A stretch of 64,000 bases of DNA from Elusimicrobiota bacterium. Lineage in GTDB: Bacteria > Elusimicrobiota > Elusimicrobia > F11. Both the position numbers and the translations under genes were made by a program. The notes beneath the pieces are model-generated. The model had not been told where the DNA came from and made no database searches. It worked only from the letters and a program-made list of their open reading frames with translations. The stretch covers positions 96,001 through 160,000 of the forward strand of contig JBGAON010000001.1 of the NCBI GenBank assembly GCA_044221725.1, given 5' to 3'. Positions 5,628 to 46,420 of the stretch are shown one piece after another; positions within the stretch are counted from its first letter, which is position 1; each line of letters starts with the position of its first letter.

Positions 5628-7876
5628 CTTCAGCCCAATCTCCGGCTACCCGGGCCAATTACATCCTGGCTCATGGGGAACGGCTTACCAAACCGGTCAG
5701 TATTCCTCGCGGCGCTGGTGAGAAAGTTCATCCCTATTCCTTCGCCGAGGCCAAAGACCGCCTTCGCCCTCAGATAAAAAAAGTCGTCGAAACCGTTTTC
5801 GCTCTGCCAGCGGACACCTGCCCCAACGATGAAACCGTCATCGGTCTCACGCTTCATCCTTCTTACCTGGCCAAGTCTTATTTCCCAGTCAATCTTCTTC
5901 GCGCCTTAAACTTGCGAGTAGTAGGAAGTCAACGGAAGATGATTTCTCCTGAGAAAACGGTGGGCAAAAAAACGTCAGGAGAAGTTCCGACCGTTGAGTT
6001 ATTTGTGGCAGGACAGCGAAGTGCCATTCAGCGGTTAGCGGAACGGCAAGACAAATGGAATCCTCGATCCACGGAAGCTCAAGACCTGATCCGGATCGAG
6101 AGGATTCAACCCATCAAGCCGGAAGACAAATTTGTTCCTTTTGATTCCAAGGAGGAAGTACCGCTCCTTGAAATTGTTCTCCACGCTTCCAAGAACGCTG
6201 AATCGCGTTACATTGTGGAAGGTTTTTTCAAATTTCTCTCCGGCCTGGGGATCGAGGCCAAGTATTCTGAAAAGAAGCTTTTCGTTGGCGGCTTGTGCTT
6301 TATTCCGCTTCGAGCGCCTCAATCATTGATTCCAAAAATCATCTCCTATTCCTTCTTACGAGTTCTCCGAAAGATGCCGTCTCTGCGGAGCTTCCTTCCG
6401 TTGCTTCGCATGGCCACGAAGACCGAGCCTTTCCCTTTTGATTCTCCTGAGGGAGGCCCTATAAATCCGGATATCCACACAGTTGTTATGGACGGAGGAA
6501 TACCCAGCAATGCAAATCTGAGTCGTTGGGTTCACTACGAAAAGGCTCCTGGCGTAACCGAGGAGGATGAGGATGGACTCAAGCACGGCCTTACCGTCAC
6601 CTCGGCCGTGCTCTTTGGTCCGCTTCAGAAGGACGCTCCGGTTTCCTTTCCGTTCTCACGATTGGATCATTACTGCGTTCTCGGAAAAAACGACCAGGGA
6701 GATTTCATTTACGATGTTCTCGCTCGCGTGATTTCCGTCCTTGAATCCAAGCGGTATGAATTCGCCAACCTAAGCCTCGGACCACGTCTTCCTATCGAAG
6801 ACAACCATGTCGATCCGTGGACATCGGTGATTGACCAAGTGCTCTCGGATGGGAAAATTTTCTTGACAGTGGCCGTTGGCAACGATGGAGACAAAGACAG
6901 GCCCTCCGGCAACGCCCGCATTCAGATCCCTGCGGATTGTGTGAATGCCGTTTCGGTCGGCGCCGCCGATTCATTGTCGAGAATATGGCGGCGGGCTCCT
7001 TATAGTTCCATTGGGCCTGGACGAACACCTGGTTACTTCAAGCCGGATGTGGTTGCGTTTGGGGGGGCGGACGCGGAACCTTTTTGGGTCATCGATCCGC
7101 AGAATCCAGCGTCGACATTTCCAGCGGGAGGGACCAGCTACTCGTCGCCCGCCGCTTTGCGTATCGCTTTGGGCTTAAGATCTCAATACGGGGGCGACCT
7201 TAAACCGCTCGTACTTAAAGCCTTGCTTGTCCATCACAGCGACTCGCTCGGTCACGATAAGATCGAGGTTGGATGGGGAAGGATTCCGGCTTCACTCGAT
7301 GCTTATATGAAGTGTCCCCCGGGCACGATAAAAATTCTCTATCAAGGTGAACTCCCACCCAAAAAATATCTCCGGATCCCCGTGCCGCTGCCGAAGGAAA
7401 CCCTGAAAGGCAATGTGACAATCAAAGCCACTCTGTGTTACGCCACCGAAACCGATCCAGAGCATCCCTTCCATTACAGCCGGAGCGGTCTTGAAGTTAC
7501 TTTCCGGCCGCATTCAAAAGTTCGGTCCCGTCCGGAGCAAGAACAACCAAAAACCACGTCTTTTTTTAGGCCGGACGATCAATACATGACAGAAAGCGCG
7601 TTACGCCGGAGCGCTTTCAAATGGGAATCCACCTTGCATGGGCAGAAGAGAATGAGAGGAGCGAGTCTTGACGATCCCGTGTTCGATGTCCATTACATGG
7701 CGAGAACGGGGGGCAGGCCAGCGAAAGACCCCAAACCAATCGCGTATGCTTTCGTTTTAACGGTCGAAGCGCCCAATCACCCTGACCTCTATGACAACGT
7801 TGTCGTCAGGTATCGAACCCAACTGGAAGCGCTGCGACCTGTGGTTGAGATTCCCATCCAATCTCAGGGAATGTGA
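5585..7876 (+). CDS. ietS: S8 (subtilisin-like) serine protease, IetS-like
   Basis: Triad VMDGG / KHGLTV / GTSYSS, oxyanion AVGND, KPDVVAFGG; no signal peptide. Confidence 0.8.
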   Translation: MDRRKPRHNKKDDLASAQSPATRANYILAHGERLTKPVSIPRGAGEKVHPYSFAEAKDRLRPQIKKVVETVFALPADTCPNDETVIGLTLHPSYLAKSYFPVNLLRALNLRVVGSQRKMISPEKTVGKKTSGEVPTVELFVAGQRSAIQRLAERQDKWNPRSTEAQDLIRIERIQPIKPEDKFVPFDSKEEVPLLEIVLHASKNAESRYIVEGFFKFLSGLGIEAKYSEKKLFVGGLCFIPLRAPQSLIPKIISYSFLRVLRKMPSLRSFLPLLRMATKTEPFPFDSPEGGPINPDIHTVVMDGGIPSNANLSRWVHYEKAPGVTEEDEDGLKHGLTVTSAVLFGPLQKDAPVSFPFSRLDHYCVLGKNDQGDFIYDVLARVISVLESKRYEFANLSLGPRLPIEDNHVDPWTSVIDQVLSDGKIFLTVAVGNDGDKDRPSGNARIQIPADCVNAVSVGAADSLSRIWRRAPYSSIGPGRTPGYFKPDVVAFGGADAEPFWVIDPQNPASTFPAGGTSYSSPAALRIALGLRSQYGGDLKPLVLKALLVHHSDSLGHDKIEVGWGRIPASLDAYMKCPPGTIKILYQGELPPKKYLRIPVPLPKETLKGNVTIKATLCYATETDPEHPFHYSRSGLEVTFRPHSKVRSRPEQEQPKTTSFFRPDDQYMTESALRRSAFKWESTLHGQKRMRGASLDDPVFDVHYMARTGGRPAKDPKPIAYAFVLTVEAPNHPDLYDNVVVRYRTQLEALRPVVEIPIQSQGM

Positions 7877-26051: not shown

Positions 26052-27167
26052 TTAGGCTTGCTGAAGGGCGAGCGCCACTTTCAGCTTCTTCTGGGGCGGC
26101 AAACCCTCAAATGTTTTTTTGAGCTCATCGCCTTGCGGCTCCTGATCAACCAATCCCTTTCGAATGGCCGGGATCTGTTTGAGCATCGGCTCAATTTGTT
26201 TCTTCACTTCGCTGGAAATCATCTCCGCCATCTCTTCTTTGCTGACGGATTTCGGAACTGCGGCCGAGGCGGGCGGCGTCCACTGTTCACCGATCGCTTG
26301 TTTCAGCATGGCCTTGATCTGGATCGCGGTTGGTCCGATCTCGCCGCCCATCGCAATCAAGCGGTCAAGCATCATCCACACAGGTTCAAGCGAGAGGCCT
26401 CCGGCCGAAGGGCCGTTGGCTTTTTTCGTTTCCTTTTCTTTTTTTGGTTTGCTGTCCTTCCCTGCAACTTTTTCGGGCGGCTGATCCTGCGGAGCGGGGG
26501 TTTCTTGGGGCTGGGGTTCCGGTTTGGGATCCGCTGGTTTTTCTTCTGGGACTGGAGCATCAGCGGGTTTTTCGTCGTCCGGCTTGATCTCCTCAATAAT
26601 GGTTTCTTCTTGAGACATGGTGTCTCCTCCTTGGGTCGATGACCCGTTCTGGGAATCGATTTCATCGAGCGCTTTCTGGACGTACCATCCAATGGCGCGG
26701 GCTTCGGGATTGGCAGGCACGGACACAAGCGACACTTCCACGAGCGCCATGCGCTTGATGACGTTCACCACTCGGTCCAAGTCCGGCATGTATTTCTTCT
26801 CACGCTCCAGCACCTGGCCTCGAATGGAAAATTTGTTGAGAACGCCCTCTTTGATTTTCTGAATGATTTCGGGTTCGGTTTGGGAAATGAGGACATCGAT
26901 AAGGAGGCCGTTTTTGTCGAACTCGGCTTTGGTCACTTTGCCGATGGGAATCTTGATGTCGTGGTTTAAGAGGACGGTGGAATTTTTGACGAGGTCGAGC
27001 TGGGAGGCCCGCAGAGCATCTTCGGAGATGATGTCGCCCTGCAGGTCAAAATCCGAGGTGGCGGCGTACCCGACAATATGGAACTCGCCTTCGGTTTCCG
27101 CTTGTTTGGTGATCTCCAGCGGAAAATCGAATGAGATTTTCTCCAGTGTTGCCGTTTCCTGTTCCAT
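26052..27167 (-). CDS. HK97-type prohead protease fused to scaffold domain
   Basis: IVGYAAT..DLQGDII, LLNHD..PIGK, FSIRG, LVEVSLVSVPANPEA; GGAGG RBS before ATG 27167. Confidence 0.9.
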   Translation of the reverse strand: MEQETATLEKISFDFPLEITKQAETEGEFHIVGYAATSDFDLQGDIISEDALRASQLDLVKNSTVLLNHDIKIPIGKVTKAEFDKNGLLIDVLISQTEPEIIQKIKEGVLNKFSIRGQVLEREKKYMPDLDRVVNVIKRMALVEVSLVSVPANPEARAIGWYVQKALDEIDSQNGSSTQGGDTMSQEETIIEEIKPDDEKPADAPVPEEKPADPKPEPQPQETPAPQDQPPEKVAGKDSKPKKEKETKKANGPSAGGLSLEPVWMMLDRLIAMGGEIGPTAIQIKAMLKQAIGEQWTPPASAAVPKSVSKEEMAEMISSEVKKQIEPMLKQIPAIRKGLVDQEPQGDELKKTFEGLPPQKKLKVALALQQA

Positions 27168-27195
27168 GATCCTCCGGGCTTCCGCCCACACACAT

Positions 27196-27266
27196 AAAAA
27201 AAGGCGCTGTCATCTGAAGGTCCCGAAAGACCCACAGACAACAGCGCCTCGACTCAGCTCGACAGC
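27196..27266 (-). terminator. Long-stem intrinsic terminator with overlapping alternative hairpin (element B)
   Basis: Minus strand GGCGCTGT...ACAGCGCC stem with TTCG-capped top, then T7; 5' GCT-GT-CGA-GCTGAG-TCG-A-GGC overlaps the stem base. Confidence 0.75.
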
Positions 27267-27274
27267 GCGCTACG

Positions 27275-27466
27275 TTATGCTTCGATCAATTTTTTCACGC
27301 CTTCTTCCACCAGCGTCTCATGCCGTTTGATGCGGATGATGTGTCCATTTTCAAAATGCGTTTCCACAACTCCGAAGAACTTTTCGTCCTTGAGCTTCCT
27401 GCAGAACGCCTGATAAACCGCATCCGTGACTGCCGATTTCGCATCCATGCCATTATTCTGGATCAT
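27275..27466 (-). CDS. Small DUF2292/YezD-like protein
   Basis: Helix followed by KFFGVVETHFENGHIIRIKRHET; stop 8 nt before element B; family call by eye. Confidence 0.6.
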   Translation of the reverse strand: MIQNNGMDAKSAVTDAVYQAFCRKLKDEKFFGVVETHFENGHIIRIKRHETLVEEGVKKLIEA

Positions 27467-27541
27467 CAATCTATGATTCGTCCATCAACTTTCATTGTGT
27501 TTATTTTTCTGACGAGGAGGGGAGATAGCTCATCGAAATAA

Positions 27542-29257
27542 TTATGAAGACATCTTCTCGACGTAGGTTTCTGACTCCTTGACCGGATAATTTGACACCA
27601 GCAACTCAAATTTATTCCGGTGTCCCAATTGATTCGCGCCCGTCCAAAGGGTTTTCACGCGGTAGGTTTTGAATCCTTTGAATAGGTTCTTTTTCTCCAG
27701 CTCGTAACTCAACAAAAACCGGCCTTTGATGGATTTGAGAACCGGTAACATATCCTCTTCCTTGAAAAACTTTGATCCGACTCCGCCCGTTTCTTTCGGC
27801 CAGTGAAGAGGATACGGCGGATCGAGATAGAAAAAGGCGTCCTTGGAATCGAATTCCTTTATCACGTCTTTCCAATCTTTGTTTATGAGTTTCACGCCGC
27901 GAAGCCGTTCTTTAATTTGCGGAAGCCGCTTCACCAGTTGGATCTCGTATCCCTCGCCTTTCTCTCCGGTTCGCATGCCTTCTATCCGGTCGGTGCGGCC
28001 CCAGTAATTGGCTTTGTTCAGGTAAGCGATCCGGTAAAACCGCTCGCGTGGGGACGATGGCTCGCGGTCGAACACTTTTTTAACGTGGGTACGGGAGATT
28101 GTCCAATACTGCTTCTCCAGCCATTTCTGATCCTCTTCATCCATATGCTTGATGAAGCGATACGCGAAAATGAGATCCGGGTTCACGTCGTTTAAGATTT
28201 CTTCGTTCGACCGTTTCTTATGGAAGAATACCTGGGCACCGCCACAAAAGCCTTCCACGAATGTCTTGTGTTCGGGAATCATGGGGACGAGTTTCTTGCA
28301 GAGGCGAAACTTTCCCCCAGGGCTTTTGAACGCACCTTGAATTTTCTCAACGCCATCATGCCCCTCCAAATGCGGAAAAAGAAGCGGGACGCCTTCTTCC
28401 ATACCTTCTGGTTTGGCGTCCAACTCCTTGTCGATGTAGAGGTGCTTTTTCTCGAGCGGATGTTTTGAAACAAGAAGCTCCGTCACCCACTCCTGATTGC
28501 CACCGGGCCCGCGCATTTGGTTGCGGCGCTTCACGCGATAAACGTTCATCCCTTTGAACGCGTTGGCTCGGTCACCGGTGTAGGACACGATCCAATCACC
28601 TCGAAGGGTTTTCAATTTCTTGATGAACTTCTGTTCTTCAAAACCGAAATCAAAAAGATTGAATGTGCCCGGGTACGGCGGGTCGATGTAGAAGAACGTG
28701 TCCTCCCCGTCATATTTCTTAAGCACCTCGGAATAATCCTTGTTGTGAACAACAACGTTTTTAATCCGCTGTTGGGAGCGGGTGATGTTGTTCTCGAAAT
28801 CAATGATCACGCCTGCGTTGGCCGGATTAAAGGAACCGCCCCGCATCTTCCCGTAGGAGGAGCGTGTCAAATAATAGGCCTTGTAGAACCGGTCCATCTC
28901 GGTGACCGGCTTCATCTTTTTCAACCGCTCGTGCGTTTCTTTGTTGATTTCCCAGTTCCGTTTGGCGAGAGCGGCGCGATCTTCCTTCGTGTGGTCGCGG
29001 ATAAACCGGTACATGAAGGCGATTTCGGAGTCGCGGTCGTTGATGATTTCTTGCGGTGACGGATCTTTGGCGAAAAGAACCGCCGCACCACCAGCAAACG
29101 GTTCAACGTAAGTTTTGTGATAAGGAATGTATGCGGCGATCTTGTGCGCGAGTGCACGCTTGCCGCCGTAGGAGCCGAAGGCTTGCCGAACTCCTTTTTC
29201 TAAATCTGATTCTCCGCTCACCGGCTGATCAGCCGGTGAAATTTCTGTTGGTTCCAT
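27542..29257 (-). CDS. Tandem two-domain Dam-family (D12 class) N6-adenine DNA methyltransferase
   Basis: Domain 1 YGGK/YVEPFAGG/IND/YIDPPY; domain 2 PGGK/FVEGFCGG/LND/YLDPPY. Confidence 0.9.
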   Translation of the reverse strand: MEPTEISPADQPVSGESDLEKGVRQAFGSYGGKRALAHKIAAYIPYHKTYVEPFAGGAAVLFAKDPSPQEIINDRDSEIAFMYRFIRDHTKEDRAALAKRNWEINKETHERLKKMKPVTEMDRFYKAYYLTRSSYGKMRGGSFNPANAGVIIDFENNITRSQQRIKNVVVHNKDYSEVLKKYDGEDTFFYIDPPYPGTFNLFDFGFEEQKFIKKLKTLRGDWIVSYTGDRANAFKGMNVYRVKRRNQMRGPGGNQEWVTELLVSKHPLEKKHLYIDKELDAKPEGMEEGVPLLFPHLEGHDGVEKIQGAFKSPGGKFRLCKKLVPMIPEHKTFVEGFCGGAQVFFHKKRSNEEILNDVNPDLIFAYRFIKHMDEEDQKWLEKQYWTISRTHVKKVFDREPSSPRERFYRIAYLNKANYWGRTDRIEGMRTGEKGEGYEIQLVKRLPQIKERLRGVKLINKDWKDVIKEFDSKDAFFYLDPPYPLHWPKETGGVGSKFFKEEDMLPVLKSIKGRFLLSYELEKKNLFKGFKTYRVKTLWTGANQLGHRNKFELLVSNYPVKESETYVEKMSS

Positions 29258-34718: not shown

Positions 34719-34916
34719 TCAAGTGGACTCAACAGCCCTCCTCAATCGTCTTTGATAATTCCGCTGATATTTTTTCCGCCATGAACGCCAACACTCCGCG
34801 TGATACGTTTGATTGCAAAACCACGGCCACAGTGTTTTTCCACACACGCGACATTTTCGTTTCGGCGGCGCGATCAATTTTCTCTTGCTCCATATTTTGG
34901 CCTTTGGGCTTGTCAT
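34719..34916 (-). CDS. Small basic zinc-finger protein
   Basis: CRVCGK..YHAEC followed by Arg/Lys-rich helix; start uncertain. Confidence 0.5.
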   Translation of the reverse strand: MTSPKAKIWSKRKLIAPPKRKCRVCGKTLWPWFCNQTYHAECWRSWRKKYQRNYQRRLRRAVEST

Positions 34917-34930
34917 ACGTCCATCAACTC

Positions 34931-35377
34931 TCAAACTGTCAACGGCACATTCGCGCACAAGGTGTTCGCCTCGACTTTATCTGAACCGCTATGCAAAGGA
35001 ATCTTGGCGATAACTTCTGAATGCGTGTCGTGCCATACGCCCATCACGCGGGGCAGAATAAATTTGTCGTTCGTGACCACGCCGCCCAATTGCATCGCGT
35101 CGAACAGAATTTTTCCGTAGTTATGCGCGTCGCAATTGGTTCGAGGCAAGATGAACCAGAGATCCACATATGCGTAGGTTTCGATGGGCTTGAACTTCTC
35201 CCGTTTCATCAATATTTTCAGCTCGAGGCCCACAGTCCGGATGTATTGGCGCGCTTCTTGGGTGAGAATCGACCGGCAGTTCCGGCCCATGCGTACCGGT
35301 TGCATTCTTGCGTTGGTAGAAGGGCAAAGCGGAAGAAACAGCAACACGCCGCCTGTGAGGGTTTGCGATGAGATCAT
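34931..35377 (-). CDS. RusA-like Holliday junction resolvase
   Basis: LPLCPSTN, DAHNYGKILFDAM..GVVTNDK. Confidence 0.75.
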   Translation of the reverse strand: MISSQTLTGGVLLFLPLCPSTNARMQPVRMGRNCRSILTQEARQYIRTVGLELKILMKREKFKPIETYAYVDLWFILPRTNCDAHNYGKILFDAMQLGGVVTNDKFILPRVMGVWHDTHSEVIAKIPLHSGSDKVEANTLCANVPLTV

Positions 35378-35404
35378 CGTGGCTCTTCCCCACCCATCCC
35401 CCGT

Positions 35405-35496
35405 TGCAGGGATGTCAGGCATTTTCCATATAGCCCGTCATACGCGCGTGCGCGCGCGCGTAACGCCGATAATGGAGAATCCCTGACATCCCTGCA
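35405..35496. repeat. Inverted repeat around an alternating purine-pyrimidine tract; candidate replication origin
   Basis: TGCAGGGATGTCAGG (35405-35419)/CCTGACATCCCTGCA (35482-35496) flanking CATACGCGCGTGCGCGCGCGCGTA. Confidence 0.7.
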
Positions 35497-35519
35497 GGAG
35501 TTTTGAAAACCGTTGATAA

Positions 35520-37604
35520 TCAATCCTGCCCCCTATCCGTGGGCGCGACCCCAGTAAAAGCGGCATGGCGGGTGCCGGTCACCTTTTGGAACCCCCGATT
35601 GGCCAAATTCTGGGAAAGGCGCTTCTCGGACCCCACATATTCGCCCGCTTCCTCTGCCCATTTTTTCCATGAGGCGTACAGTGCCGCGGTGCGGGATGAC
35701 ACGCTTGGATTTAAAAGACACGCCTCCCCAATCCAGCGGCCCAGCGCGTCTTGGGCTTCAAAATATTCCTCTGTCGCCTCCAAAACGCGCGGCGGCGGAT
35801 TGAGCCCCTGCCTTCGCCATTCACAGCATCCTTGAACCGCCCAGCCGAGAATGCCATCGCGCTCGCGGAGCAGTTTTTCAGAAAGCAATTTGTCGCGCCG
35901 CTCAGGCGGGATGGTCACGGTGAATGGAATCAGGTGGAGACGGCGGCGCATGGCCTCATCCACATCACGAATGGCCGGCTTGTGGTTGCCGGCGATCAAA
36001 AGTTTGAACTGCGGTTTGTAATCGAAAAAATCCTGCCGCATGAAACGTGCGGAGATGGTGTCGCCGCCGGTCAGCACTTTTATTTTTGATTCGTCCCATC
36101 GGTTGTTCTCCGACACTTCCGTCGCGATCACGAGGCGCGCCCCGCGCAATTTGGCCAGATCGGTTGGATGACGGTCGCCTTTCGTCACCATGAACGTGTC
36201 GATGGGCGCGTGCGTGGCATAATCGCCCCACACGGCGGCGAGCGTGTTTACGAAAACCGATTTCCCGTTCGCGCCTGTTCCGTAGAGAAAGAAAAGAACA
36301 TGCTCTGAAGTGATGCCAGTGAGCGCGTACCCTGCCACCCGCGCCAAATAGTTCTGGAGATCCTCGTCCCCCGCCGTCACATCGCTTAGGAATTTGAGCC
36401 AGACAGGACATTCGTTTCCATACGAAGCGGCTGTTATCTTTGTCATGTAGCGTGTTTTCTCATGGGGCAACGATTCGTTGACCAGAAGATTTTGGATTCC
36501 GCTCGGCATATTCAGACTCCACGAATCAATATCCCACTGATCGGTTGTCGCCGCGTGTTTCCGGTCGGCGCGCGCTAGCCGTTCAATGGCGGCGACGGTG
36601 GAGGCGCTCGCAACTTTCGCCGCGATCTTGGATTTCTTGCACCGCGCCGATGCCGCGCGACAGACGAGCCGCGCTAAATCGTAAGCCTGAAGCGTGGTTT
36701 CATTCCGCCAACTCGCGCCATCCCACATAAGCCAGCGCCCCCACGACGCCACATAACGCCACGAATCAGCGTGCTTCTCAGTGAATTCGAGCGCCAAGGC
36801 GTCGTCGGTAAACCCAGGTGGCCTGATTATTTCGTTATCATCCGTTTCAAAATGTTGAGCGGAACCGTTGAGTCCGGGTGGAATATCTTCCGGCGGATAC
36901 CGGGCAATGCTGTCTGAGATATTTTCGATTTCTTTTTCCGAGAGGGGCGGCGAACACCGCTTGGCGTTGACGGTCTTAAGCGCGGCCGATATTTCGTCCG
37001 TGTCCAGGCCGCGCCTTCGCATTGATCCAGCGATGCTGGCCAGGGTCGCGTTCCGCTCGCCTTCGGGGATCGTTCCATTGGTCCCGTTCAGCGGTAGACT
37101 TTGACGATGCTCGCCATTCTCTCTCAACTCGCGGATGACCTCAGGAAGCGCGGCCAGGTGCGTTTCGGCATCGAACCATTCGTAAGGAACGCCGTTAATC
37201 TGGGACCCGGGCGCGACCACATAACCGCCGTCCGCTTTGAGATCCACACCGGGAAGAAGTCCATTCCGGCTTCGGAGTGGCTCGTCCAACAAATAATAAA
37301 GATGCCACCCGCCGCTTGGCGTTCTGGCCATCAAGGTCGGGGTCATGCCTTTTAGTTTTTCGATGGACTCGCGGCCCTTGGCGCCGTTCTTTACATCGAT
37401 ATCCACAACCGCCAATTTCGAAACCATGCCTGTGGCAATCCCGATATTCGCGTCCGGGTATTTCTCCCACCACCGCTTTACGGCATAGACAGATAAGGTG
37501 GCATCCTTGAATCCATTGGGCGTGAGCGGCCGCTTGCCGTTGGGCTCAACGGGGAACACCGGCCAACCGTTATTAACGAAGATAAGCGCTTGCTCCAAAC
37601 TCAT
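35520..37604 (-). CDS. Prim-Pol/PriCT/D5-type SF3 primase-helicase (P4 family)
   Basis: GWPVFP, ANIGIATG, VVDIDVK, TPSGGWHLY, GERNATL, GTGANGKS; ATGA overlap sets start MSLEQ. Confidence 0.9.
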   Translation of the reverse strand: MSLEQALIFVNNGWPVFPVEPNGKRPLTPNGFKDATLSVYAVKRWWEKYPDANIGIATGMVSKLAVVDIDVKNGAKGRESIEKLKGMTPTLMARTPSGGWHLYYLLDEPLRSRNGLLPGVDLKADGGYVVAPGSQINGVPYEWFDAETHLAALPEVIRELRENGEHRQSLPLNGTNGTIPEGERNATLASIAGSMRRRGLDTDEISAALKTVNAKRCSPPLSEKEIENISDSIARYPPEDIPPGLNGSAQHFETDDNEIIRPPGFTDDALALEFTEKHADSWRYVASWGRWLMWDGASWRNETTLQAYDLARLVCRAASARCKKSKIAAKVASASTVAAIERLARADRKHAATTDQWDIDSWSLNMPSGIQNLLVNESLPHEKTRYMTKITAASYGNECPVWLKFLSDVTAGDEDLQNYLARVAGYALTGITSEHVLFFLYGTGANGKSVFVNTLAAVWGDYATHAPIDTFMVTKGDRHPTDLAKLRGARLVIATEVSENNRWDESKIKVLTGGDTISARFMRQDFFDYKPQFKLLIAGNHKPAIRDVDEAMRRRLHLIPFTVTIPPERRDKLLSEKLLRERDGILGWAVQGCCEWRRQGLNPPPRVLEATEEYFEAQDALGRWIGEACLLNPSVSSRTAALYASWKKWAEEAGEYVGSEKRLSQNLANRGFQKVTGTRHAAFTGVAPTDRGQD

Positions 37605-39370
37605 GAGACCGTCCCCGCAGGAACGGACGTTCGTTCGGAAGACGTTTGAGATGGACGGTTGTCCGTCGGACGGTTTTTCAGTTGAAAGGCGTTTAGACAG
37701 CGTTGAATTTTTTGGCAGTTGAATCGCAGATTGAGCAAGCAAGACGCTTTGTACCGCGTCATCGGGCCCTTCATAGATTCGGGTGGCAAATACTGCAACT
37801 GTTTCGGCGTGGGCGGGCTTTGGAGCCAGCGGCGGGATTTGTGCGCCGCCTCTTCTGTCTCATTGGAGTTCATCCAATCATCTGCGGAAGCCAAAGACGC
37901 GATGCGGTCGCCCACATAAAGAACATGCGGAAACTGCCCTTCAACTCCGCCGACGGCGTGCCAGAGCCCTCCGAGCGAATGCCCTTCGGGCGAACGCCCG
38001 TTCAAATTCATGACCAAGGCCCATGCGGTGAATCCCGTTGCCGCAAGAGTGGAGCCGTCACCGTTCACATCGCACCACTGAAACGAGGATCGATTCAACA
38101 GATCGATCTCCGTCATTTCAAAATCCTCCAAAACCTTTTTCTTCGAGCCCGGAAATTCATGGTTACAAAACGGGCATTCCCGAACCTGTATGGGGACCTC
38201 GGCCTCGCATTCGGGACAAATCTTGAGCAGAGGGATGCCGGACCGTTCCTCGTCCTTCTCTTTTTCAACGGAATCCAGATCAATATCCTGCTCCAACGAG
38301 CCGTGGGTGAGGGCGGAGGTGCCGAAATCGAGGATGACGCAATCGGTTTTGATCAGGCCGGGGAAGAGGTTGGGATCAATGGTTCGTAATCCACGACCCA
38401 CCATCTGTACAAACGTTGATTTGTGGGAACAAGGTCTCAGCAGCACGACGCAGGAAATCGGAGGGCAATCCCATCCTTCCGTCGCCACGGCCACGTTGAC
38501 CAAAACTTGCGAAACTCCCTCATGCAATCGGCGAAAAATATCCGCACGCTCATCCGAAGGCGTTTCTCCCGTCACCAACTCCGCCGAAACCCCCGCCTCC
38601 CTGAAGGCTTGCGCCACATGCGCGGCATGAAGCACCGTCGAACAGAAGACCACCGTCCGCCTGTCGCCGGCGTTTTCGCGCCAGTGCCGAATGATTGAAT
38701 CCGTGAGCGGTTTGTGATCCATGATGGAGGCCACTTCTGTCATGTCGAATTCAGAGGCCAACCGGCGCACCTGCTTTAATGAGTCTTGAACTCCCAGGTC
38801 GACGACATATGTGCGGGGCCGGACCAGATGTCCCGACGCAATCAATTCACTGATCGTAATCTGGTCGGCGCAATTGTCAAAAATGTCGCGTAACGGCTTT
38901 CCGTCGCCGCGAAGAGGCGTGGCGGTCACGCCGTAAACCTTCACTTGTGGATTCTTCTTTCGCGCGAAATCAATAATCCGTCGATACGTCGCCGCCTGGG
39001 CGTGATGAGCTTCATCGATAATGATCAGATCAACGGCGGGCATCTCCAGCAGGTTGTTTTCCCGCGCCAACGTTGGAACCATCGCGAACGTGACTTTTCC
39101 AGACCACGATTTGCTTTTCGAATCAACAACGGAAACGCTCATGTGGGGATTAATCTTCAAGAACTTCTCGATGTTCTGGCCGGTGATTTCATCCCGGTGA
39201 GCTAGGATGCAGGCCTTGCTGCCGTTCTCATCCAACATCTCACTGGCCACGGCGGCCAACATCAATGTCTTCCCGCTCGCTGTCGGAGCCACACCCAGCG
39301 TGTTCCCTCGATCTCGGAGTTTTTTGACGCTTCGGTTGACGAATATTTTTTGGCGAGGACGAAGGATCAT
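37601..39370 (-). CDS. SF2 DEAD/DEAH-box helicase with zinc ribbon
   Basis: APTASGKT, DEAHH, TATP, QMVGRGLR, CPEC..CPFC. Confidence 0.9.
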   Translation of the reverse strand: MILRPRQKIFVNRSVKKLRDRGNTLGVAPTASGKTLMLAAVASEMLDENGSKACILAHRDEITGQNIEKFLKINPHMSVSVVDSKSKSWSGKVTFAMVPTLARENNLLEMPAVDLIIIDEAHHAQAATYRRIIDFARKKNPQVKVYGVTATPLRGDGKPLRDIFDNCADQITISELIASGHLVRPRTYVVDLGVQDSLKQVRRLASEFDMTEVASIMDHKPLTDSIIRHWRENAGDRRTVVFCSTVLHAAHVAQAFREAGVSAELVTGETPSDERADIFRRLHEGVSQVLVNVAVATEGWDCPPISCVVLLRPCSHKSTFVQMVGRGLRTIDPNLFPGLIKTDCVILDFGTSALTHGSLEQDIDLDSVEKEKDEERSGIPLLKICPECEAEVPIQVRECPFCNHEFPGSKKKVLEDFEMTEIDLLNRSSFQWCDVNGDGSTLAATGFTAWALVMNLNGRSPEGHSLGGLWHAVGGVEGQFPHVLYVGDRIASLASADDWMNSNETEEAAHKSRRWLQSPPTPKQLQYLPPESMKGPMTRYKASCLLNLRFNCQKIQRCLNAFQLKNRPTDNRPSQTSSERTSVPAGTVS

Positions 39371-39413
39371 GGAACAGCACCTTCCTTCGCTCGCCCTTGT
39401 CCGGGCCGTCGCA

Positions 39414-39896
39414 TTAGAATTTTATTTCGGACTGATCCGGTGACGGTGAGGCCGGCGACGCCGGGGCTTTCGCCGGACCATCTGCTGTCACCGCTTGCGT
39501 TACGGGATCGCCATCCACGTAGAACTTGGAAATCCGGTTTCTTTTCTTTTTGTCGTATTCCTCGATCACCACGTGCGCCTTGCAATATTTGTGCACGTAC
39601 TCGTCGGTGTCGAAGTCGAGGCTTCCGTCGTAAGGAAGCCCCAAGGCATGATTGACCCTGAGCCAAATCCCGTGACCGGGTTCGCCTTTCGGAATAAAGG
39701 TCACGGTGTGAAAACACCGGCCCACGGTTTTACCCTCAAGCGTCATGATGGCGAAAACGAGATCAACCTTCTGACGTTTGGTTTCATTCGTGAGCCCATC
39801 TTCTTTTTCAATCACTTCGACGATGTAATCGTCCTCGGGAGCCAGGGTAAACCCGGCGCTTTCTTGGGATGCGTCCGCTTGAATTTGAACTCTCAT
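39414..39896 (-). CDS. Putative ssDNA-binding protein (DUF669-like)
   Basis: [19 protein letters not shown], Pro/Ala tail ending in F; follows Sak4-like gene. Confidence 0.65.
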
Positions 39897-40687
39897 TTTT
39901 TTGATCCTCCTTGGGGTTTTGTTGACGTTTTTGTTTCGGCGGGAAGCGGCGGTTTTACGGGAGCGGGTTCCGATTTAAAGACGGCCTCGATGGCTGACCA
40001 CTGATTGGCTTTTGGCAACTCGATGACCCTGTCCTCGAGTTCGGGAATCCGGCTTCCGAAAGCGCCCAGCGGCCCGCCGCTGAAACTGACGAAATACTTC
40101 GTCGTGCCGGCCACCTGTTTCTTGTAACAGTGGCCGATCGCATCAGCGGCCGCCGCAATGAAACTAGCTCCCTTGCCCATGACGTTGATGCCCTGCGGCA
40201 CCACGACGACGCCGTTGGCATCGAGCTTGGGCTCTTTCGTATGGGCCAAGAGAACGATGAGCTTCCCGCTCGCTTTGAAATAGCCGACGAGCGCTTCGAT
40301 CCGCTTTCGGAGCTCCGCAAAGAGGCTCCAAGAATCAACGCCTTGCTTGCGCTCAAGGATATTCTCGAGTCCAGCGGCTCGCGCAACCTCGTCTTCCAGC
40401 ATCGACGCCACGGAATCAAGCGTGTCGATGACGATGCACCGAACGTCTGCGGCCGCAACCGCCGCTTTGAGAACGCTCCTGAAATCAGGGAGCGTTGCAA
40501 CTTCCGCTATGCGGCCGCTGACTCTGTCCGCTCCGCCTTTTTCCATCTCAATAATGATGGAGTCTTTGATGCTCGAACCTAATGTGGTCTTACCGACCTT
40601 CTGCATGCCCACAAAGATGAACAGCCCCTCTGTCGGCATGCCCGTCTTGCGCTTGTCGCGCCATTGCGGCAATGTCGTGTCCTCCAT
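39893..40687 (-). CDS. Sak4-like AAA_24 ATPase (single-strand annealing)
   Basis: [21 protein letters not shown]. Confidence 0.75.
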
Positions 40688-41258
40688 TGTTTCCTCCTAT
40701 GATGTGTTTCCATCGCTCTCTCTTAATGATCCTCGCTATGGGGGTTGGCCCCATCCCGTACATCTGCGCGAGTTTGAGATAGGTGTAATGTCCCGTGGCG
40801 TAGAGCGCCCGTATTTCGACAACCTGTTTTTCATTCAATTTGGCGCAGTAATGATCGGACCCGTGGGATAAATTTTCGGGATGGCGGCGCGAGGGACTCA
40901 TGTCTCCTCGAAGAAGCCGCTCGGGATGAAGCCTGGATCCGTTCCGGTCGCCTTTGGCTTGCCTGTTCTTAAAGTCTCGGTCGCGGATGTTGTCGATCTC
41001 CGTTCCAATCCAGAGATGGTCGGGGCGGACGCAGGGCGGGTTGTCGCATTTGTGCAACACGCACATGCCCGGCGGAATCGGACCCCGCTCAAATGTCCAC
41101 GACGCGCGGTGGGCACGCCAATTTCTTCCGTCCATCTTGAACTTGCCGTAACCCCGCTTGCTCCTCGCGCGGAGCCATTCCCAACATCCGCTTGTCCGGT
41201 TGACGTTTCGCCAAAACCGAATCTCGTGGGCAATCCGTGGAAAAACGCCTTTTGGCAT
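40590..41258 (-). CDS. HNH homing-type endonuclease with C-terminal HTH
   Basis: CWEW, GYG, AHRASW, VLHKCDNPPCVRPDHL..N. Confidence 0.85.
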   Translation of the reverse strand: MPKGVFPRIAHEIRFWRNVNRTSGCWEWLRARSKRGYGKFKMDGRNWRAHRASWTFERGPIPPGMCVLHKCDNPPCVRPDHLWIGTEIDNIRDRDFKNRQAKGDRNGSRLHPERLLRGDMSPSRRHPENLSHGSDHYCAKLNEKQVVEIRALYATGHYTYLKLAQMYGMGPTPIARIIKRERWKHIIGGNNGGHDIAAMARQAQDGHADRGAVHLCGHAEGR

Positions 41259-41264
41259 AGCGAC

Positions 41265-42053
41265 CTAAAACGCCTCGTATTGCGGCTTCTCAAGCGCGTC
41301 TTTAAGCGTCTTCGCCGCCAGGAAGGCCCGGAAACTCAAGGCCAGATCAGCCACAGTCTTCACTTCGAATTCATAAGGCGGTTTTTTCCCGAGCCGGAGA
41401 ATGAGCGCTTGGTCACAGGTGATTCCGTAGGTTTCCGAGAGGGCCTGGGAATATGCCGCCACTTGCAAGGCAAATTCCGGCCAGCATCCCGACGAGGTTT
41501 TCAGATCAATCAAGACGTATTTGCCGTTTCGAAATCCCAGCGCGTCCAGAGATCCGGCGTATTGATAGACCAGGCTCGCCACCTTGGTGTCGCCCAGCAC
41601 AATTTCGATGCCGGAATGTTTCCACCAGGCAAGAAACGCCTCGACGGGTGCTTTGATCTCGTCCGGGATCGCGTCGTGCTTCTGGCCTTTCACGATTTGA
41701 TCAACGGTGGAGTGAACTCGGGTTCCAAGATCGGCGGCGGCGTCTTTGATTTGATCCGGCTTCTTTCTCGCGCTGGCGATGACGCTTTGGATCCACGACT
41801 TGTCCAGCGTGATTTGCGCGGAGTCTTGGCCGTTCAGCTGTTTAAGAAGCTCTCCTTCGACGGAAACCACCGCTTCTCTTGCGGCCCAGTTAACAAGCGC
41901 GGGTTTTGCAATGACGCCCAAATAACCGGTGACGCTTTCAAGTCGGTGCACGACTCCTTCTTTCTCAGCTCGATAAATGTGTTTCCGGCCTTCGATGGTC
42001 ATCGTGATGGGGAATATCGGCGTCAACATGGGCGGACGAGAGGAGAGACGCAT
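41265..42053 (-). CDS. PD-(D/E)XK exonuclease
   Basis: SVT..L..IAKPAL..W, GTRVH, YAGSLD, IDLKTS, LQVAAY. Confidence 0.8.
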   Translation of the reverse strand: MRLSSRPPMLTPIFPITMTIEGRKHIYRAEKEGVVHRLESVTGYLGVIAKPALVNWAAREAVVSVEGELLKQLNGQDSAQITLDKSWIQSVIASARKKPDQIKDAAADLGTRVHSTVDQIVKGQKHDAIPDEIKAPVEAFLAWWKHSGIEIVLGDTKVASLVYQYAGSLDALGFRNGKYVLIDLKTSSGCWPEFALQVAAYSQALSETYGITCDQALILRLGKKPPYEFEVKTVADLALSFRAFLAAKTLKDALEKPQYEAF

Positions 42054-42368
42054 TTACGCCCCCGTTGACCCGACATCGGATGGAGATTTCATCGCTTTGG
42101 TGAGAAGGCGCTCCACGCGAAATCCTTCCTCTCCGAACTCTCTAGAAACGGTCGCCGTGAAGAGCTGAGCGAGGTGTTTCCCAACGTCGGTTGATTTGTC
42201 GATGATCACGATCCTCTGATGACGGTCGAAGCAAAAAGAACTGTCCAAGCGGAACCGCGCCTTCCCGAAAATGCTTTCGGTATTGAAGGCCGACCAAAAA
42301 AGGCACTCCTCGATCTCTTTGACCGGAGTGCTCTCTCGAAAGATGAATTTGTAAACGCCGTTATCCAT
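42054..42368 (-). CDS. Hypothetical protein
   Basis: 104-aa ORF directly after sigma-like gene, abutting the next gene. Confidence 0.7.
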   Translation of the reverse strand: MDNGVYKFIFRESTPVKEIEECLFWSAFNTESIFGKARFRLDSSFCFDRHQRIVIIDKSTDVGKHLAQLFTATVSREFGEEGFRVERLLTKAMKSPSDVGSTGA

Positions 42369-42376
42369 AAGGGGTC

Positions 42377-42416
42377 CTACTTATCCTCTATCCCTTTCGC
42401 GGAAAAATTTTCCGGT
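42377..42416 (-). promoter_or_regulatory. 40-bp promoter-like repeat, copy 1 (faces replication operon)
   Basis: ACCGGAAAATTTTTCCGCGAAAGGGATAGAGGATAAGTAG, 35/40 identical to 44437-44476. Confidence 0.7.
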
Positions 42417-43007
42417 TGGCTGGGGGCAGACGGAAAATAATCTTTCAATCTCTCATCTTCCGCGAGGATCCGGCCCATGCGATGGAATTCAGCCTGCAGG
42501 GTGGTTCGGGGCTTTTTTATGAGGCGGCTGATTTCGATGGGCGAATAGCCCGCAATAATTAAGGAACCGATCTCGCGCTGTTCCTTGTTAAGCCGGCGGA
42601 ACATACGTTCGGCGTCATAAAGGAAGTCGGTGTCGGAGAAGGGGCAGGTTGGGCGTCCGCCTAAGCGGCTCGATTCCGAGATGCTTTCGGAGAGTGGCTG
42701 GCGATCTCCATCCTGGTTTTGGATCTCCTGATCCAATGACATGGTTACACACCCGCGACCGCGTTTCAGTGCATCGCGGAGTCTCATCAATTGGAGGATG
42801 GCTTTGTCGAGGATGAAACTTAGGAACTTCTCCTGAGAAGCGCTCGATGCGTGGTCGGGCCGATAGAGCCCGCGCCTTTCAACGATGAAAATTAAAAGTT
42901 GTTGTTCCATGTCTTGGCCATCCTCCTTTGTCAGCCGGAATTTTCGTTTCGCCGCCTCACTCTTTTTTTTTCGCCATCCTCAGTTCCATCTCCGTCAGTT
43001 CTTTCAC
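42377..43007 (-). CDS. ECF/sigma70-like factor, interrupted by a frameshift in an A9 run (intact part 42377-42910)
   Basis: Region-2-like DMEQQLL..Y.P..FLSFI, SLD, region-4 HTH GYSPIEISRLIKKPRTTL; AGGAGG+GTG at 43007 joins in frame only if the run is A8. Confidence 0.7.
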
Positions 43008-43045: not shown

Positions 43046-43116
43046 CAAAAAAATAGGGGCTGCTGGCATCTCGAGAATTTCTCGAGGTTGCCAACAGCCC
43101 CCGTCTTTCGGTCGGC
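43046..43116 (-). terminator. Long-stem intrinsic terminator with overlapping alternative hairpin (element A)
   Basis: Minus strand GGGGCTGTTGGCA..CTCGAGAAATTCTCGAG..TGCCAGCAGCCCC-TATTTTTTT; 5' GCC-GA-CCG-AAAGA-CGG-G-GGC overlaps the stem base. Confidence 0.75.
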
Positions 43117-43161
43117 CGTCGGTCACTAAAAAATGTGATGAGAATTATTTTTTGATTGGCT

Positions 43162-43506
43162 TTATTTTGGGATGCTCCTTTGCTTCTGTCTTTCGCAAAT
43201 GCGAATGGGAGTTCGGTTTTGAACGCAGATCTTCGATAGAGTGATCGTCTTTCCCTTGCAGTAAGTCATCAACCGGTGCCATTCCGGCGAAATCGGATGA
43301 CTGGCGTCAAACGGTGAATTGGATTTGCTTAGGTTCTCGATGAGGCAAGAAGTTTCCATGTCGAAAACCGGTCGAGGCAAGCCAGCTACGATCTCAAGGC
43401 CCAGAATTTCTCCAAAGTAAAGTTGATGGGAAGCTCGGATAACCACCTGCCATTCCGAAGGGAGATCATTAATAAGGACAGGACGGGCGGTTGGGGAGGG
43501 GATCAT
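43162..43506 (-). CDS. Hypothetical protein with two helix+beta-hairpin units (DUF2292-like by eye)
   Basis: PSEWQVVI..YFGEILGLEIVAGLP and SPEWHRLM..LSKICVQNRTP; directly upstream of element A. Confidence 0.55.
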   Translation of the reverse strand: MIPSPTARPVLINDLPSEWQVVIRASHQLYFGEILGLEIVAGLPRPVFDMETSCLIENLSKSNSPFDASHPISPEWHRLMTYCKGKTITLSKICVQNRTPIRICERQKQRSIPK

Positions 43507-43514
43507 GATGGGTG

Positions 43515-43757
43515 TTACCGCCCCGTGATCACAAAGAGGTCGTCAAATTGAAAAAATGGATGGCCTTCGATTTTCTGGGTTGCGTTCAATGCGGCTAGGA
43601 TTCGGGTTCGCACTTCTGGAGAGGGCATTCTTTTTCGCGTCATCAATTGCGACATGTAAGGACTGCTGATGTGCGCTCGGCGGGCGAAGGAGTTATAGGA
43701 TAAGTTCTTTTTCGCCAGGAGCCGTTTCAGGGTTAGGGTTTTAAGTCGAACGGTCAC
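43515..43757 (-). CDS. Cro-like XRE HTH regulator
   Basis: KNLSYNSFARRAHISSPYMSQLM..PS; GGAGG RBS; divergent from repressor. Confidence 0.8.
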   Translation of the reverse strand: MTVRLKTLTLKRLLAKKNLSYNSFARRAHISSPYMSQLMTRKRMPSPEVRTRILAALNATQKIEGHPFFQFDDLFVITGR

Positions 43758-43778: not shown

Positions 43779-43879
43779 TGCTATCTTCTGATAGCAAACC
43801 TTATAGCACAGGAAAACAAGCGTTGTAAAGGCGTTTGATAATTATCTGCTTGCAACAGATAGCAAGACTTTATTAGACT
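43779..43879. promoter_or_regulatory. Immunity switch: two 18-bp operators and divergent promoters
   Basis: TGCTATCTTCTGATAGCA (43779-43796), TGCTTGCAACAGATAGCA (43847-43864); leftward TTTACA-18-TATAAG with TG extension; rightward TTGCAA-18-TAGACT ending 6 nt before repressor ATG (probably leaderless). Confidence 0.65.
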
Positions 43880-43885
43880 CCCTTC

Positions 43886-44386
43886 ATGACAACACGAAAG
43901 ATTGACGAAAAACCAGGTTTACAGGACCGGCGGACAAAAACGGTGCCCCCATCAGAAAGAGGGCCTCGTGCCTACTTGCGGGATGAAAAAAGAAAGGGCC
44001 CAAAAGAAAGACGGGCTCATCCGCGCCCTCATCCAAGCAACTTGGCCGGTTTCCTTAAAAGATTGAGGATGGAACGGGGATTTACTCTGCGACAAGCCGG
44101 TAGCGAGATGGGAATCAACGATGCGTATCTTTGGCAACTTGAAAACGGAAAACGAGAAATACCTCGTCCAGACACCCTGGAGAAGTTGGCGAATGGCTAT
44201 GGCATTCCCCATGATTATCTTTTGCGAATGGTGGGGTACCTAAAAAATCAGGACGCCTATTTCAAAGGCATCGATGAGATGCAGACTTCATACCTCTTTC
44301 GTGATTATCAAAAGTTGTCTAATGAAGGTAAGAAGAAGCTGGAAAGTTTTTTGCGATTCCTACAAAAGGAAGACAAAAAAGAGTGA
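43886..44386 (+). CDS. CI-like XRE repressor without S24 peptidase domain
   Basis: LKRLRMERGFTLRQ..YLWQLENG..P..TLEKLA. Confidence 0.8.
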   Translation: MTTRKIDEKPGLQDRRTKTVPPSERGPRAYLRDEKRKGPKERRAHPRPHPSNLAGFLKRLRMERGFTLRQAGSEMGINDAYLWQLENGKREIPRPDTLEKLANGYGIPHDYLLRMVGYLKNQDAYFKGIDEMQTSYLFRDYQKLSNEGKKKLESFLRFLQKEDKKE

Positions 44387-44732: not shown

Positions 44733-46361
44733 ATGAAAAGCCCTGTTGAACAAAAACCCACCACCTTGTTGTGCGCGGTTTACACGCGTAAATCCACCGA
44801 CGAGAATCTGAATACGGGTTTTACCTCGCTTGATTCGCAGCGCGAGTACTGTCAGGCATTTGTTAAAAGTCGGGAAGGCGAAGGTTGGCGCGTCCACGCC
44901 GAGGAATACAACGATCCGGGATTCTCAGGCGGCAATATGAACCGCCCAGGTTTAAGAAAACTTCTCGCCGATGCTCGCGCCAGAAAATTTCAGGTCGTAG
45001 TTTGCTACAAGTACGATCGGCTAAGTCGCAACACAAAAGATTTTCTTCAAATCCTCGAAGTTTTTGACCGAAGCGGCGTCGCCTTTGTTTCGGTCACCCA
45101 ACCCATCGATACCACCTCTTCCGTCGGAAGATTGATGAGAAGCATCCTTATGGATTTTTCGCAATTCGAGCGCGAGATGATTGCGGAGCGCACCAGAGAC
45201 AAACTTCACGCCATGGCTCAAAAAGGAAAACGCACGGGCGGCTGGCCCGTCATCGGCTACAACATCGATAGCGAAAACCGGAAGTTATCGGTCAACGCCG
45301 AAGAAGGGCTGTGTGTGCGGGAGATGTTTGAAGCCTATCTTCGGACGTTGTCCTTAAGCCAAGCGGCTCAATATTTGAATGAGAAGGGCTATCGGATGAA
45401 GGAATGGATCACCCACAGCAAGAAGCGTCGGGGAGGGCAAAAATTCAACAAGGCCAGCCTGTGGTATCTTCTGCAGAATCCGCTTTATGTCGGGAAGATA
45501 ACGCACCGTCGGCAGGTTCTGCCCGGCGAGCATGAGGCCATTATTTCGCAGGAGATTTTTGACGCCGCGCAAAAGGCTCTTCGCGCCAACGGCAATGGAA
45601 CGAAGAACAAACACGTCCAAGAACGGAAGCGCGATTTTCTTTTGCGCGGACTGATGGAATGCGCCACCTGCAAGACCTCGATGACGCCGAGCTCGGCATT
45701 ACCGAGGAGCAGGCGGGGCGTATCCTATGAGCGCTTCTACTATTACAAATGCCTGTCGGTCGTGAAGATGAATAAATCGGCCTGCAAGATCAGACATGTG
45801 TCGGCGAAATCAATAGAGGAATATGTCGTCAAACGATTGGAATTGCTGAGCGAAAATCAGGAGATTGTGGAACAGATCGTGGCTGAGGCCCAGTCGACAA
45901 CCAGTCAGGAGCTTCCGATTAAGCGGGATGAAAGAAAACGGCTGGCCGCGGAACTGGGAAAACTCGAACTGCAAGCCAAGAGCCTCGTCATGGTCCTCGC
46001 TGATGAAGGGCCAACTTCGTCTATGCGATCTTATGTGAGAGACCAATTGGCCGAGATCGAGGCAAAGAAACAGGAGAGCGGCCCGCGGGTTGCCTCACTT
46101 GATCTTGAAATCGAACGGTTGGAAAAGCGCCAGATCGACGCTAACGTCGTGCGTCGGAATCTTGGCAACTTCCTCAAACTCTTCGCAAAAATGTCCGGCG
46201 ACGAGCGGCAGGAAATGATGGGGCTGCTGGTGGGTCGTGTGATCTACGACGGAGAAAAGTCTCGGGTTCGCATCGCCCTCCGCCCCCTGCCTGAAGCCTG
46301 GGGCGACCTAGATTACCTGGAAGGCGTTTTCTACGACCGTCAAACATCTCTGCCGGACTAG
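44733..46361 (+). CDS. Large serine recombinase (integrase)
   Basis: YTRKST catalytic Ser, YDRLSR, FERE.I.ERT, NPLYVG, HEAIIS, Zn ribbon CATC..YYKC..C, coiled coil. Confidence 0.95.
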   Translation: MKSPVEQKPTTLLCAVYTRKSTDENLNTGFTSLDSQREYCQAFVKSREGEGWRVHAEEYNDPGFSGGNMNRPGLRKLLADARARKFQVVVCYKYDRLSRNTKDFLQILEVFDRSGVAFVSVTQPIDTTSSVGRLMRSILMDFSQFEREMIAERTRDKLHAMAQKGKRTGGWPVIGYNIDSENRKLSVNAEEGLCVREMFEAYLRTLSLSQAAQYLNEKGYRMKEWITHSKKRRGGQKFNKASLWYLLQNPLYVGKITHRRQVLPGEHEAIISQEIFDAAQKALRANGNGTKNKHVQERKRDFLLRGLMECATCKTSMTPSSALPRSRRGVSYERFYYYKCLSVVKMNKSACKIRHVSAKSIEEYVVKRLELLSENQEIVEQIVAEAQSTTSQELPIKRDERKRLAAELGKLELQAKSLVMVLADEGPTSSMRSYVRDQLAEIEAKKQESGPRVASLDLEIERLEKRQIDANVVRRNLGNFLKLFAKMSGDERQEMMGLLVGRVIYDGEKSRVRIALRPLPEAWGDLDYLEGVFYDRQTSLPD

Positions 46362-46420
46362 GATTCGAACCTAGACGAGCAGATTCAGAGTCTGCCATCC
46401 TACCATTAGATGATCCGGCA
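46350..46420 (-). tRNA. tRNA-Gln(CTG), CCA not encoded
   Basis: Acceptor TGCCGGA/TCCGGCA, anticodon arm GCAGA-CTCTGAA-TCTGC, T arm CTAGG-TTCGAAT-CCTAG. Confidence 0.95.

Follow-up and report, generated by a model that had tools for sequence, protein, structure and literature searches.

A conserved hairpin-terminator element and its neighbouring tandem DUF2292-like gene as a candidate antitermination gate in the early operon of an Elusimicrobia prophage

In the present study, a stretch of 64,000 nucleotides from an Elusimicrobiota bacterium (assembly GCA_044221725.1, contig JBGAON010000001.1, positions 96,001 to 160,000), here called the window, was analysed. The window carries a temperate siphovirus-like prophage with a divergent cI/cro pair and, at the right end, a serine recombinase and a tRNA. 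After cI/cro, the minus strand holds a single run of replication, packaging, head and tail genes (Table 1). Two similar elements, each consisting of a small gene, a short hairpin and an intrinsic terminator that overlaps the hairpin, lie in this run and are called gate A and gate B. The early operon behind gate A encodes a conserved protein of 104 aa, a PD-(D/E)XK nuclease, an HNH protein, an AAA_24 protein, an SSB-like protein, a helicase, a primase-polymerase and RusA. The HNH gene (40590-41258, minus strand) is missing from the two related prophages compared. In nearly all these elements the 104-aa gene, for which no Pfam or NCBIfam family was found, comes next after the sigma-like gene. 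The named relatives of this gene and of gene A belong to Elusimicrobia. At the left end of the prophage, genes for an AAA ATPase and a subtilase of family S8 stand side by side (4524-7876, plus strand) and presumably resemble ATPase-protease pairs of the defence or toxin-antitoxin kind. The gene between portal and B (27542-29257, minus strand) encodes a 571-aa protein with two stretches of D12 adenine methyltransferase. A 27-nt near-repeat of the tRNA end was seen at 46325-46351 and at positions 76707-76733 of contig C3, 65 kb away, and a loose contig end at 46325 has letters that match the flank of C3 76707-76733. From these repeats, the integrated element may be about 65 kb long, with kdp-like genes included.

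Table 1. Positions of the prophage features in the window.
Feature	Position	Strand	Remark
cI-like repressor (HTH_3/HTH_31)	43886..44386	+	family searches
Putative early promoter, -35/-10-like	43800-43829	-	by eye; not in strict promoter scan
18-bp inverted repeat, candidate operator	43779-43796	-	by eye
cro-like HTH gene	43515..43757	-	8 nt before gene A
Gene A, 114 aa, tandem DUF2292/YezD-like domains	43162..43506	-	candidate gate-A RNA-binding antiterminator
Partial repeat (GACCGA) of the hairpin A 5' arm	43117..43124	-	just upstream of hairpin A
Hairpin A, 20 nt, predicted antiterminator	43097..43116	-	about -6.7 kcal/mol
Intrinsic terminator A	43046..43102	-	6 nt common with hairpin A
SD and GTG, 16-codon leader ORF, sigma-like N-terminal helix	42957..43007	-	
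A9 run, switch of the sigma-like gene to the +1 frame	42963..42971	-	
Main frame of ECF-like sigma gene	42377..42961	-	
104-aa conserved gene	42054-42368	-	directly after the sigma-like gene
Gated early operon	34931..42368	-	family searches
Late promoter-like element 1, before packaging genes	34894..34942	-	box, TGGACG, 18 nt, CAAAAT
Late promoter-like element 2, before gene B	27455..27503	-	box, TGGACG, 18 nt, CAGAAT
Gene B, 57 aa, single DUF2292-like domain	27275..27448	-	ATG 27448; longer starts at 27466/27469
Hairpin B core	27246..27266	-	
Intrinsic terminator B	27194..27250	-	before the prohead protease gene
Prohead protease gene	26052-27191	-	directly after terminator B
Large serine recombinase	44733..46361	+	end at tRNA
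tRNA	46350-46420		overlaps the recombinase end

The sequence-only reading had described gate A as cro, a 114-aa ORF, a hairpin overlapping a terminator and a sigma-like gene in this order, and both the coordinates and the folding bear this out. Hairpin A, 46 nt past the stop codon of gene A, has the form GCC-GA-CCG-AAAGA-CGG-G-GGC, in which two stems of 3 bp are separated by a GA/G internal loop and closed by a 5-nt loop. Its last 6 nt are also the base of the long terminator stem, which is followed by a T run, and these nucleotides can belong to only one of the two structures at a time. In folding, terminator A reached -38.8 kcal/mol (z -7.76), a value equalled by none of 200 shuffles. Hairpin A gave -6.7 kcal/mol and the long terminator hairpin -43.2 kcal/mol; because of this difference, hairpin A would need a stabiliser. 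When hairpin A was enforced, the upper terminator stem persisted, about 7 nt away from the U tract. Copy B repeats the layout with the compensatory differences that the same reading had claimed, namely two double changes in the inner stem. Its hairpin shares 5 nt with the terminator, and the stop codon of gene B lies less than 10 nt from the hairpin.

A loose 6-pair hairpin overlapping a terminator was found at 25 of the 124 terminator-like sites in the whole genome, and since such hairpins are common, the geometry alone is weak evidence. The stricter form GC..G..GC was present at 3/124 sites, two of which are A and B, whose matches are expected because the pattern was written from them. In viral contigs, the short bare motif gave 56 matches, none with a terminator, which were taken as chance, and the long DNA pattern gave none. 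Only A and B, both of them training sequences, scored below E 2 when the window was searched with the covariance model. A scan of the prophage found these two as the only strong short-loop terminators on the minus strand. An Rfam search of 24000-47000 at E 1 returned the tRNA and one chance match, and no family. RNA contigs from two runs of one study had a depth of 0-3 on both sides of gate A; such contigs cannot show where transcripts start or end, and may be DNA.

Proteins A and B were difficult to place by direct searches. Neither matched Pfam (E 0.01), NCBIfam or a useful PHROG, homolog searches with the single sequences were nearly empty, and all atlas matches were under 0.9. Fold searches gave nothing at E 0.001 against viral proteins and nothing clear in the wide PDB search (best Z 2.7), where absence does not imply a new fold. 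The two helix and beta-hairpin units that had been read by eye in the 114-aa ORF are supported by an AlphaFold model (pLDDT 82.7), with helices at 17-27 and 74-83 and strands at 31-40, 43-56, 88-96 and 99-105. They are further supported by the match of the two halves to each other (hhalign 89.7%; none of 40 column shuffles as high). The set of single-domain relatives matched the halves of A with profile probabilities of 97.5% and 96.7%, again with 0/40 shuffles for each. On these profiles, A is a tandem duplicate of a DUF2292/YezD-like domain, linked through its single-domain relatives. One of these, at L005, scores 22.0 bits against the PF10055 cut-off of 22 bits, and another is just below. 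A distant group of 108-aa tandem proteins also matches A, at 95% profile probability.

In the model of B, the confidence of which is low (64.5), the elements are ordered as in A; a homodimer prediction for B scored 0.38 against a mark of 0.42. A profile built from 7 B-like sequences found no match. When 19 sequences were used, the profile matched the single-domain early proteins at 75% (E 2.5e-5; 0/40 shuffles), and PF10055 was matched by 7 of the 19 proteins at E up to 1 (best 1.2e-6). The same family was not matched by A and B themselves, and the B profile found no convincing match among PDB sequences. By these profile links B is a single-domain, distant member of the DUF2292-like group. A and B thus fall into one distant family through the single-domain set, and the direct match of the B profile to A is weak (4%, E 0.009), above all 40 shuffles for the N-terminal half of A and not for the C-terminal half. 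Because the links run via relatives, A and B are best called distant DUF2292-like paralogues and not PF10055 members. In the literature searched, which comprised titles and the openings of abstracts with few subscription journals, no link of DUF2292/YezD to antitermination was found, and the listings named no function for the family.

Since direct searches with A and B failed, the neighbouring 104-aa gene was used as the lead, and by this means relatives were traced in 20 of the 401 genomes of the phylum as well as in viral and genome collections. In front of the sigma-like gene, these loci encode either a protein of the tandem A-type, single-domain (62-66 aa) or zinc-ribbon kind, or nothing recognisable, so that tandem and single-domain forms share one slot. 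In a scan of 40 loci, the RNA model matched 16 of the 18 scorable loci with an upstream DUF2292-like gene and none of the 19 loci without one. These same sequences were the source of both the model and the hairpin register, and 11 of the 16 matches are training sequences and 5 come from outside the training set. Three loci were left out before counting: L119, whose hairpin was unscorable, L013, which overlaps the L051 region and has no sigma gene placed, and L027, which carries a B-type gate. Duplicate loci (L113-L118, L125, L126, L132, L135) and the truncated L123 were not scanned. The model missed L011 and L051, which are LexA-type with tandem proteins, despite their terminators and GGCTGA boxes. 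At L049 and L051, a LexA-like repressor is followed by a 150-aa tandem protein, several GGCTGA boxes, a terminator and the sigma gene, and one of the boxes lies inside the 3' end of the tandem-protein gene.

Among 13 aligned hairpins, 77 of 78 cells pair and four of the six base pairs change on both sides. None of 500 shuffles reached this score and slid controls were 26-60% paired, counts that are not to be read as probabilities because the sequences are related and the proposed structure served to anchor their alignments. As the stem is nearly invariant in the early Elusimicrobia gates, most of the covariation comes from the comparison between groups. B-type hairpins taken separately (n=12) pair in 95/96 cells. 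A U-tract terminator overlaps the hairpin at 10/10 folded Elusimicrobia loci of A-type or single type and at 4/4 B loci, and the overlap was always 5-7 nt across the loci folded. The apical loop ranges from 3 to 9 nt with no conserved sequence. One position pair separates the two kinds of gate, being an A opposite a purine in 10/10 early hairpins of A-type or single type and a U-A pair in 11 of 12 late B-type hairpins, and it is a candidate specificity switch. The GACCGA repeat upstream of hairpin A is kept in L003, L022 and L112 and absent in L009 and the five single-domain loci printed. The pairing of gene and hairpin is kept across distant groups at 8-18% protein identity. Four of four distant tandem loci that were folded keep the hairpin and the long stem without a U tract. 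This arrangement was seen at L120, L128, L130, L131, L133 and L134, where the ribosome-binding site of the sigma gene is folded into a second hairpin, and translational control is possibly at work in these six. Overall, the hairpin-terminator feature of gate A is real and conserved.

In many loci without a DUF2292-like gene, this slot is taken by a zinc-ribbon gene with another kind of leader. This second class of gate was seen before the sigma-like gene at L004-L008, L012, L016, L019 and L028-L030, and L029 and L030 have tandem leaders of this type. By eye, it consists of a Com-like zinc-ribbon ORF, a leader with GAGCC repeats and a long hairpin; at L014, L017 and L023 the leader was seen without a zinc-ribbon ORF beside it. 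In L005, L007, L008 and L028, gates of the single-domain and the zinc-ribbon type are chained before sigma. One of the zinc-ribbon proteins matches Mu Com (PF10122) over the cut-off, and Com is described as an RNA binder and translational activator (PMC6483171). B-type gates are commoner and are also present in prophages whose early slot is of zinc type or empty. A terminator accompanies 17 of the 20 B-like loci, and 13 of the 17 precede a prohead protease gene. At L150, L155 and L166, a B-like gene and gate stand with no head genes after them, and at L155 the B-like gene directly follows a 104-aa-like gene. An orphan B-like hairpin with a terminator was seen outside the window (L169:2283-2317, near 78293 of C3, minus strand), before a gene with an adenylate/guanylate cyclase domain (PF00211). 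It has a weak model score (10.9 bits, E 1.2) and no DUF2292-like gene nearby, and could be a target of B in trans. Scans of metagenomes yielded no usable locus.

The gene gated by A is sigma-like through its relatives. On a profile of these, its protein scores 96 bits, and the match to a PHROG sigma family is weak (E 0.002). No sigma family of NCBIfam, TIGR02937 included, was matched directly by the frame in the window; against the cut-off of that family (42.9 bits), the syntenic L010 scores 51.1, L008 40.9 and L050 40.8. The position of the gene directly after gate A agrees with the sequence-only reading, which missed its split. A strong SD precedes GTG 43007, the start of a 16-codon ORF whose end comes directly after nine As; no other A/T run of at least 9 is present in the window. 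The remainder of the gene is in the +1 frame relative to this leader. With an X placed at the break, the protein can be aligned to 15 intact relatives; the alignment begins at profile position 11 and is ungapped at the break, and reading through gains about 8 bits. The start is likely GTG 43007 and not the called ATG 42910. The latter has an internal SD of its own and gives a 177-aa form lacking the first helix. Since an SD and a start codon are kept at this place in all four prophages compared, such a truncated form is likely made.

The same A9 run and stop are present in L003, L022 and L112, that is, in 4/4 prophages. Downstream of the run, synonymous sites differ at 62-75% among the four, with dN 0.12-0.26 and dS 1.3-4.0, and dN/dS is far below 1. 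Of the degenerate codons for invariant amino acids, 6 of 7 in the leader and 17 of 82 further downstream are the same in all four. Changes in the spacer fall mostly on third positions of the +1 frame (2/6/10). A contig from another study bridges the run without a gap and lists no indel, although contigs drop rare variants. An assembly error is ruled out, since four prophages and one independent contig show the same run. Either shared decay or a leader for translational coupling is possible; decay was judged unlikely from the conservation in four prophages and the codon pattern. The split is probably a programmed recoding site that acts by slippage or frameshift. Runs of nine As or Ts are described as sites of efficient polymerase slippage in bacteria, and in Thermus dnaX and Shigella mxiE, the second of which is likewise a regulator gene, the extended product needs a change of frame at an A9 run (PMC5009743). 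The present case differs from the descriptions given there in that slippage is putative and the gene, sigma-like and from a phage, stands directly after a candidate attenuator and keeps an internal start. As read from these alignments, a start of the sigma-like gene upstream of the called ORF and its split at a conserved A9 appear to be new here.

The window has exactly two copies of a 16-nt motif, and two related prophages (L136 and L137) have two each; in all three, the copies lie before the packaging genes and before B. All six copies have CA(G/A)AAT 18 nt downstream, and the chance mean per prophage is 0.03-0.07. The motif looks like a promoter with an upstream box, which the sigma-like protein or another activator may read; a strict promoter scan listed neither the early nor the late promoter-like sites. 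Since late element 2 ends 6 nt before the ATG of B, this gene may be leaderless. The box in front of B appears palindromic in more distant relatives, where the ATG is often 6-7 nt past a -10-like hexamer. One promoter-like motif before both late modules in three prophages is, on this comparison, also new here. The cascade that had been proposed (repressor release, gate A, sigma, replication and excision, gate B, virion genes) is supported in part: both gates stand in the same order in two related prophages, and the motif before packaging and B fits a sigma step. Its excision step was not borne out: family searches recognised no excisionase in the gated early operon, and the recombinase is on the plus strand, opposite to that operon. 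Gate B precedes the prohead protease and then the head and tail genes as claimed, but terminase and portal lie upstream of it.

We consider it fairly probable, from these sequence comparisons, that gate A is a RAT-like, protein-dependent attenuator run by the tandem DUF2292-like protein and the first of two paralogous gates. After repressor release, the transcript from cro to A would stop at terminator A until protein A accumulates. Protein A, acting as a fused pseudo-dimer, would then bind hairpin A, and the held hairpin would deprive the terminator stem of its base, adjacent to the U tract, so that RNA polymerase could continue into the sigma-like and replication genes. Such a circuit would set a positive-feedback delay between immediate-early and delayed-early genes. 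Full-length sigma-like protein would come only from transcripts or ribosomes that slipped at A9, and may drive both late promoter-like elements. B would be made from the second of these and would in turn open gate B, in front of the head and tail genes. The position pair and the differences in the inner stem would let each protein read its own gate.

Other explanations were weighed against this attenuator. The hairpin could be a loading site, like lambda nut or, as a DNA site, like qut, at which A makes the polymerase resist several downstream terminators. The operons are long, the stem is as sequence-invariant in the early gates as a binding site in DNA or RNA would be, and A follows cro in a manner analogous to N after the early promoter. 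However, the hairpin always overlaps the terminator, its base pairs covary and its loop is not conserved; since the minus strand has only two strong short-loop terminators, processivity would not be needed, and we regard a loading site as improbable. Action of the protein in the negative sense, or on the translation or RNA stability of the downstream gene, is similarly improbable. A stabilised small hairpin can only weaken the terminator base, and because the terminator wins by default in folding, a further repressor would be redundant. In favour of control at another level are the distant tandem loci without a U tract, where the ribosome-binding site lies in a second hairpin, and the action of Com in translation (PMC6483171).

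It might also be supposed that a host protein, a ribosome, an antisense RNA or a small ligand opens the hairpin and that the small gene is only a co-inherited neighbour. An adjacent gene and hairpin would move together in module exchange regardless of function, and the stop codon of B is close to its hairpin, but that of A is beyond a ribosome footprint. Furthermore, the type of hairpin follows the type of protein and the pairing persists across distant groups at low protein identity, and we hold this explanation to be quite unlikely. Conservation, covariation and co-occurrence with one protein family argue against an ordinary leaky terminator that sets the expression level, with the small hairpin as a chance fold; the presence of a loose overlapping hairpin at 20% of the terminator-like sites in the genome speaks for it, and its probability is very low.

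Among known systems, the attenuator proposed here can be compared with that of phage lambda, in which terminators after cro and before the virion genes (N/nut/tR1 and Q/PR'/tR') order immediate-early, delayed-early and late expression. The terminators in the present prophage have the same places and would order the phases likewise. Lambda N and Q make a processive change to RNA polymerase at sites that lie apart from the terminators, and the boxB hairpin of nut has a conserved loop, whereas here the sites overlap the terminators, the loops vary in length and sequence, and two paralogues with a sigma step between them are predicted. The gates also resemble the RAT hairpins of BglG, SacY and LicT, which are described as sharing 6-10 nt with a stronger intrinsic terminator (PMC5393181). 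In both cases a short hairpin with an internal loop shares its 3' nucleotides with the stronger structure, a two-unit protein is expected to stabilise it, and paralogous systems differ at few RNA positions; the RAT described there has two internal loops and the present hairpin one (PMC5393181). A and B have no CAT or PRD domain even at E 10, binding is predicted, and the setting is a phage life cycle and not sugar use. Since they lack a sensor domain, the likely input is the amount of protein. As in hut, the regulator gene is first in the operon with the target terminator directly behind it, but HutP, described as a histidine- and Mg-activated hexamer binding NAG repeats, has an unrelated fold, and here the hairpin is the likely site (PMC12591593). 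In conAn, too, a cis-acting RNA comes after a protein gene at the head of an operon of a mobile element. conAn2 of pLS20, which lies in a 383-bp intergenic region, is reported to exert processive antitermination itself (PMC8191782), and conAn is a large RNA element separate from the terminators that it overrides; the present element has 20 nt, lies 46 nt past a stop codon and overlaps one terminator. Gates A and B are not members of BglG/RAT, conAn or N/nut. With DUF2292/YezD (PF10055), A shares the unit of a helix and a beta-hairpin, and its syntenic single-domain relatives reach the Pfam cut-off, but A is a tandem fusion that directly falls below it.

As a tentative wider proposal, to which we give somewhat less than an even chance, DUF2292/YezD-like proteins may be an unrecognised family of minimal RNA-binding antiterminators. 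Temperate phages would chain orthogonal protein-hairpin pairs, interchangeable with Com-like zinc-ribbon pairs, as a plug-in developmental timer, with, in this prophage, a fused-dimer early gate, a slippage-limited sigma, a single-domain late gate and an early/late code of one base pair. If so, a widespread family of unknown function would gain a role, and the early-to-late timing problem of lambda would have a second answer, which is non-processive. RNA specificity can be tested directly, since one genome carries two paralogous pairs, and the natural swaps with zinc-ribbon modules suggest that the gates are exchangeable parts. At the commitment point, the conserved A9 split may add a step that is damping or stochastic. 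Proteins of 57-114 aa with sites of 20 nt would then be compact orthogonal transcription switches.
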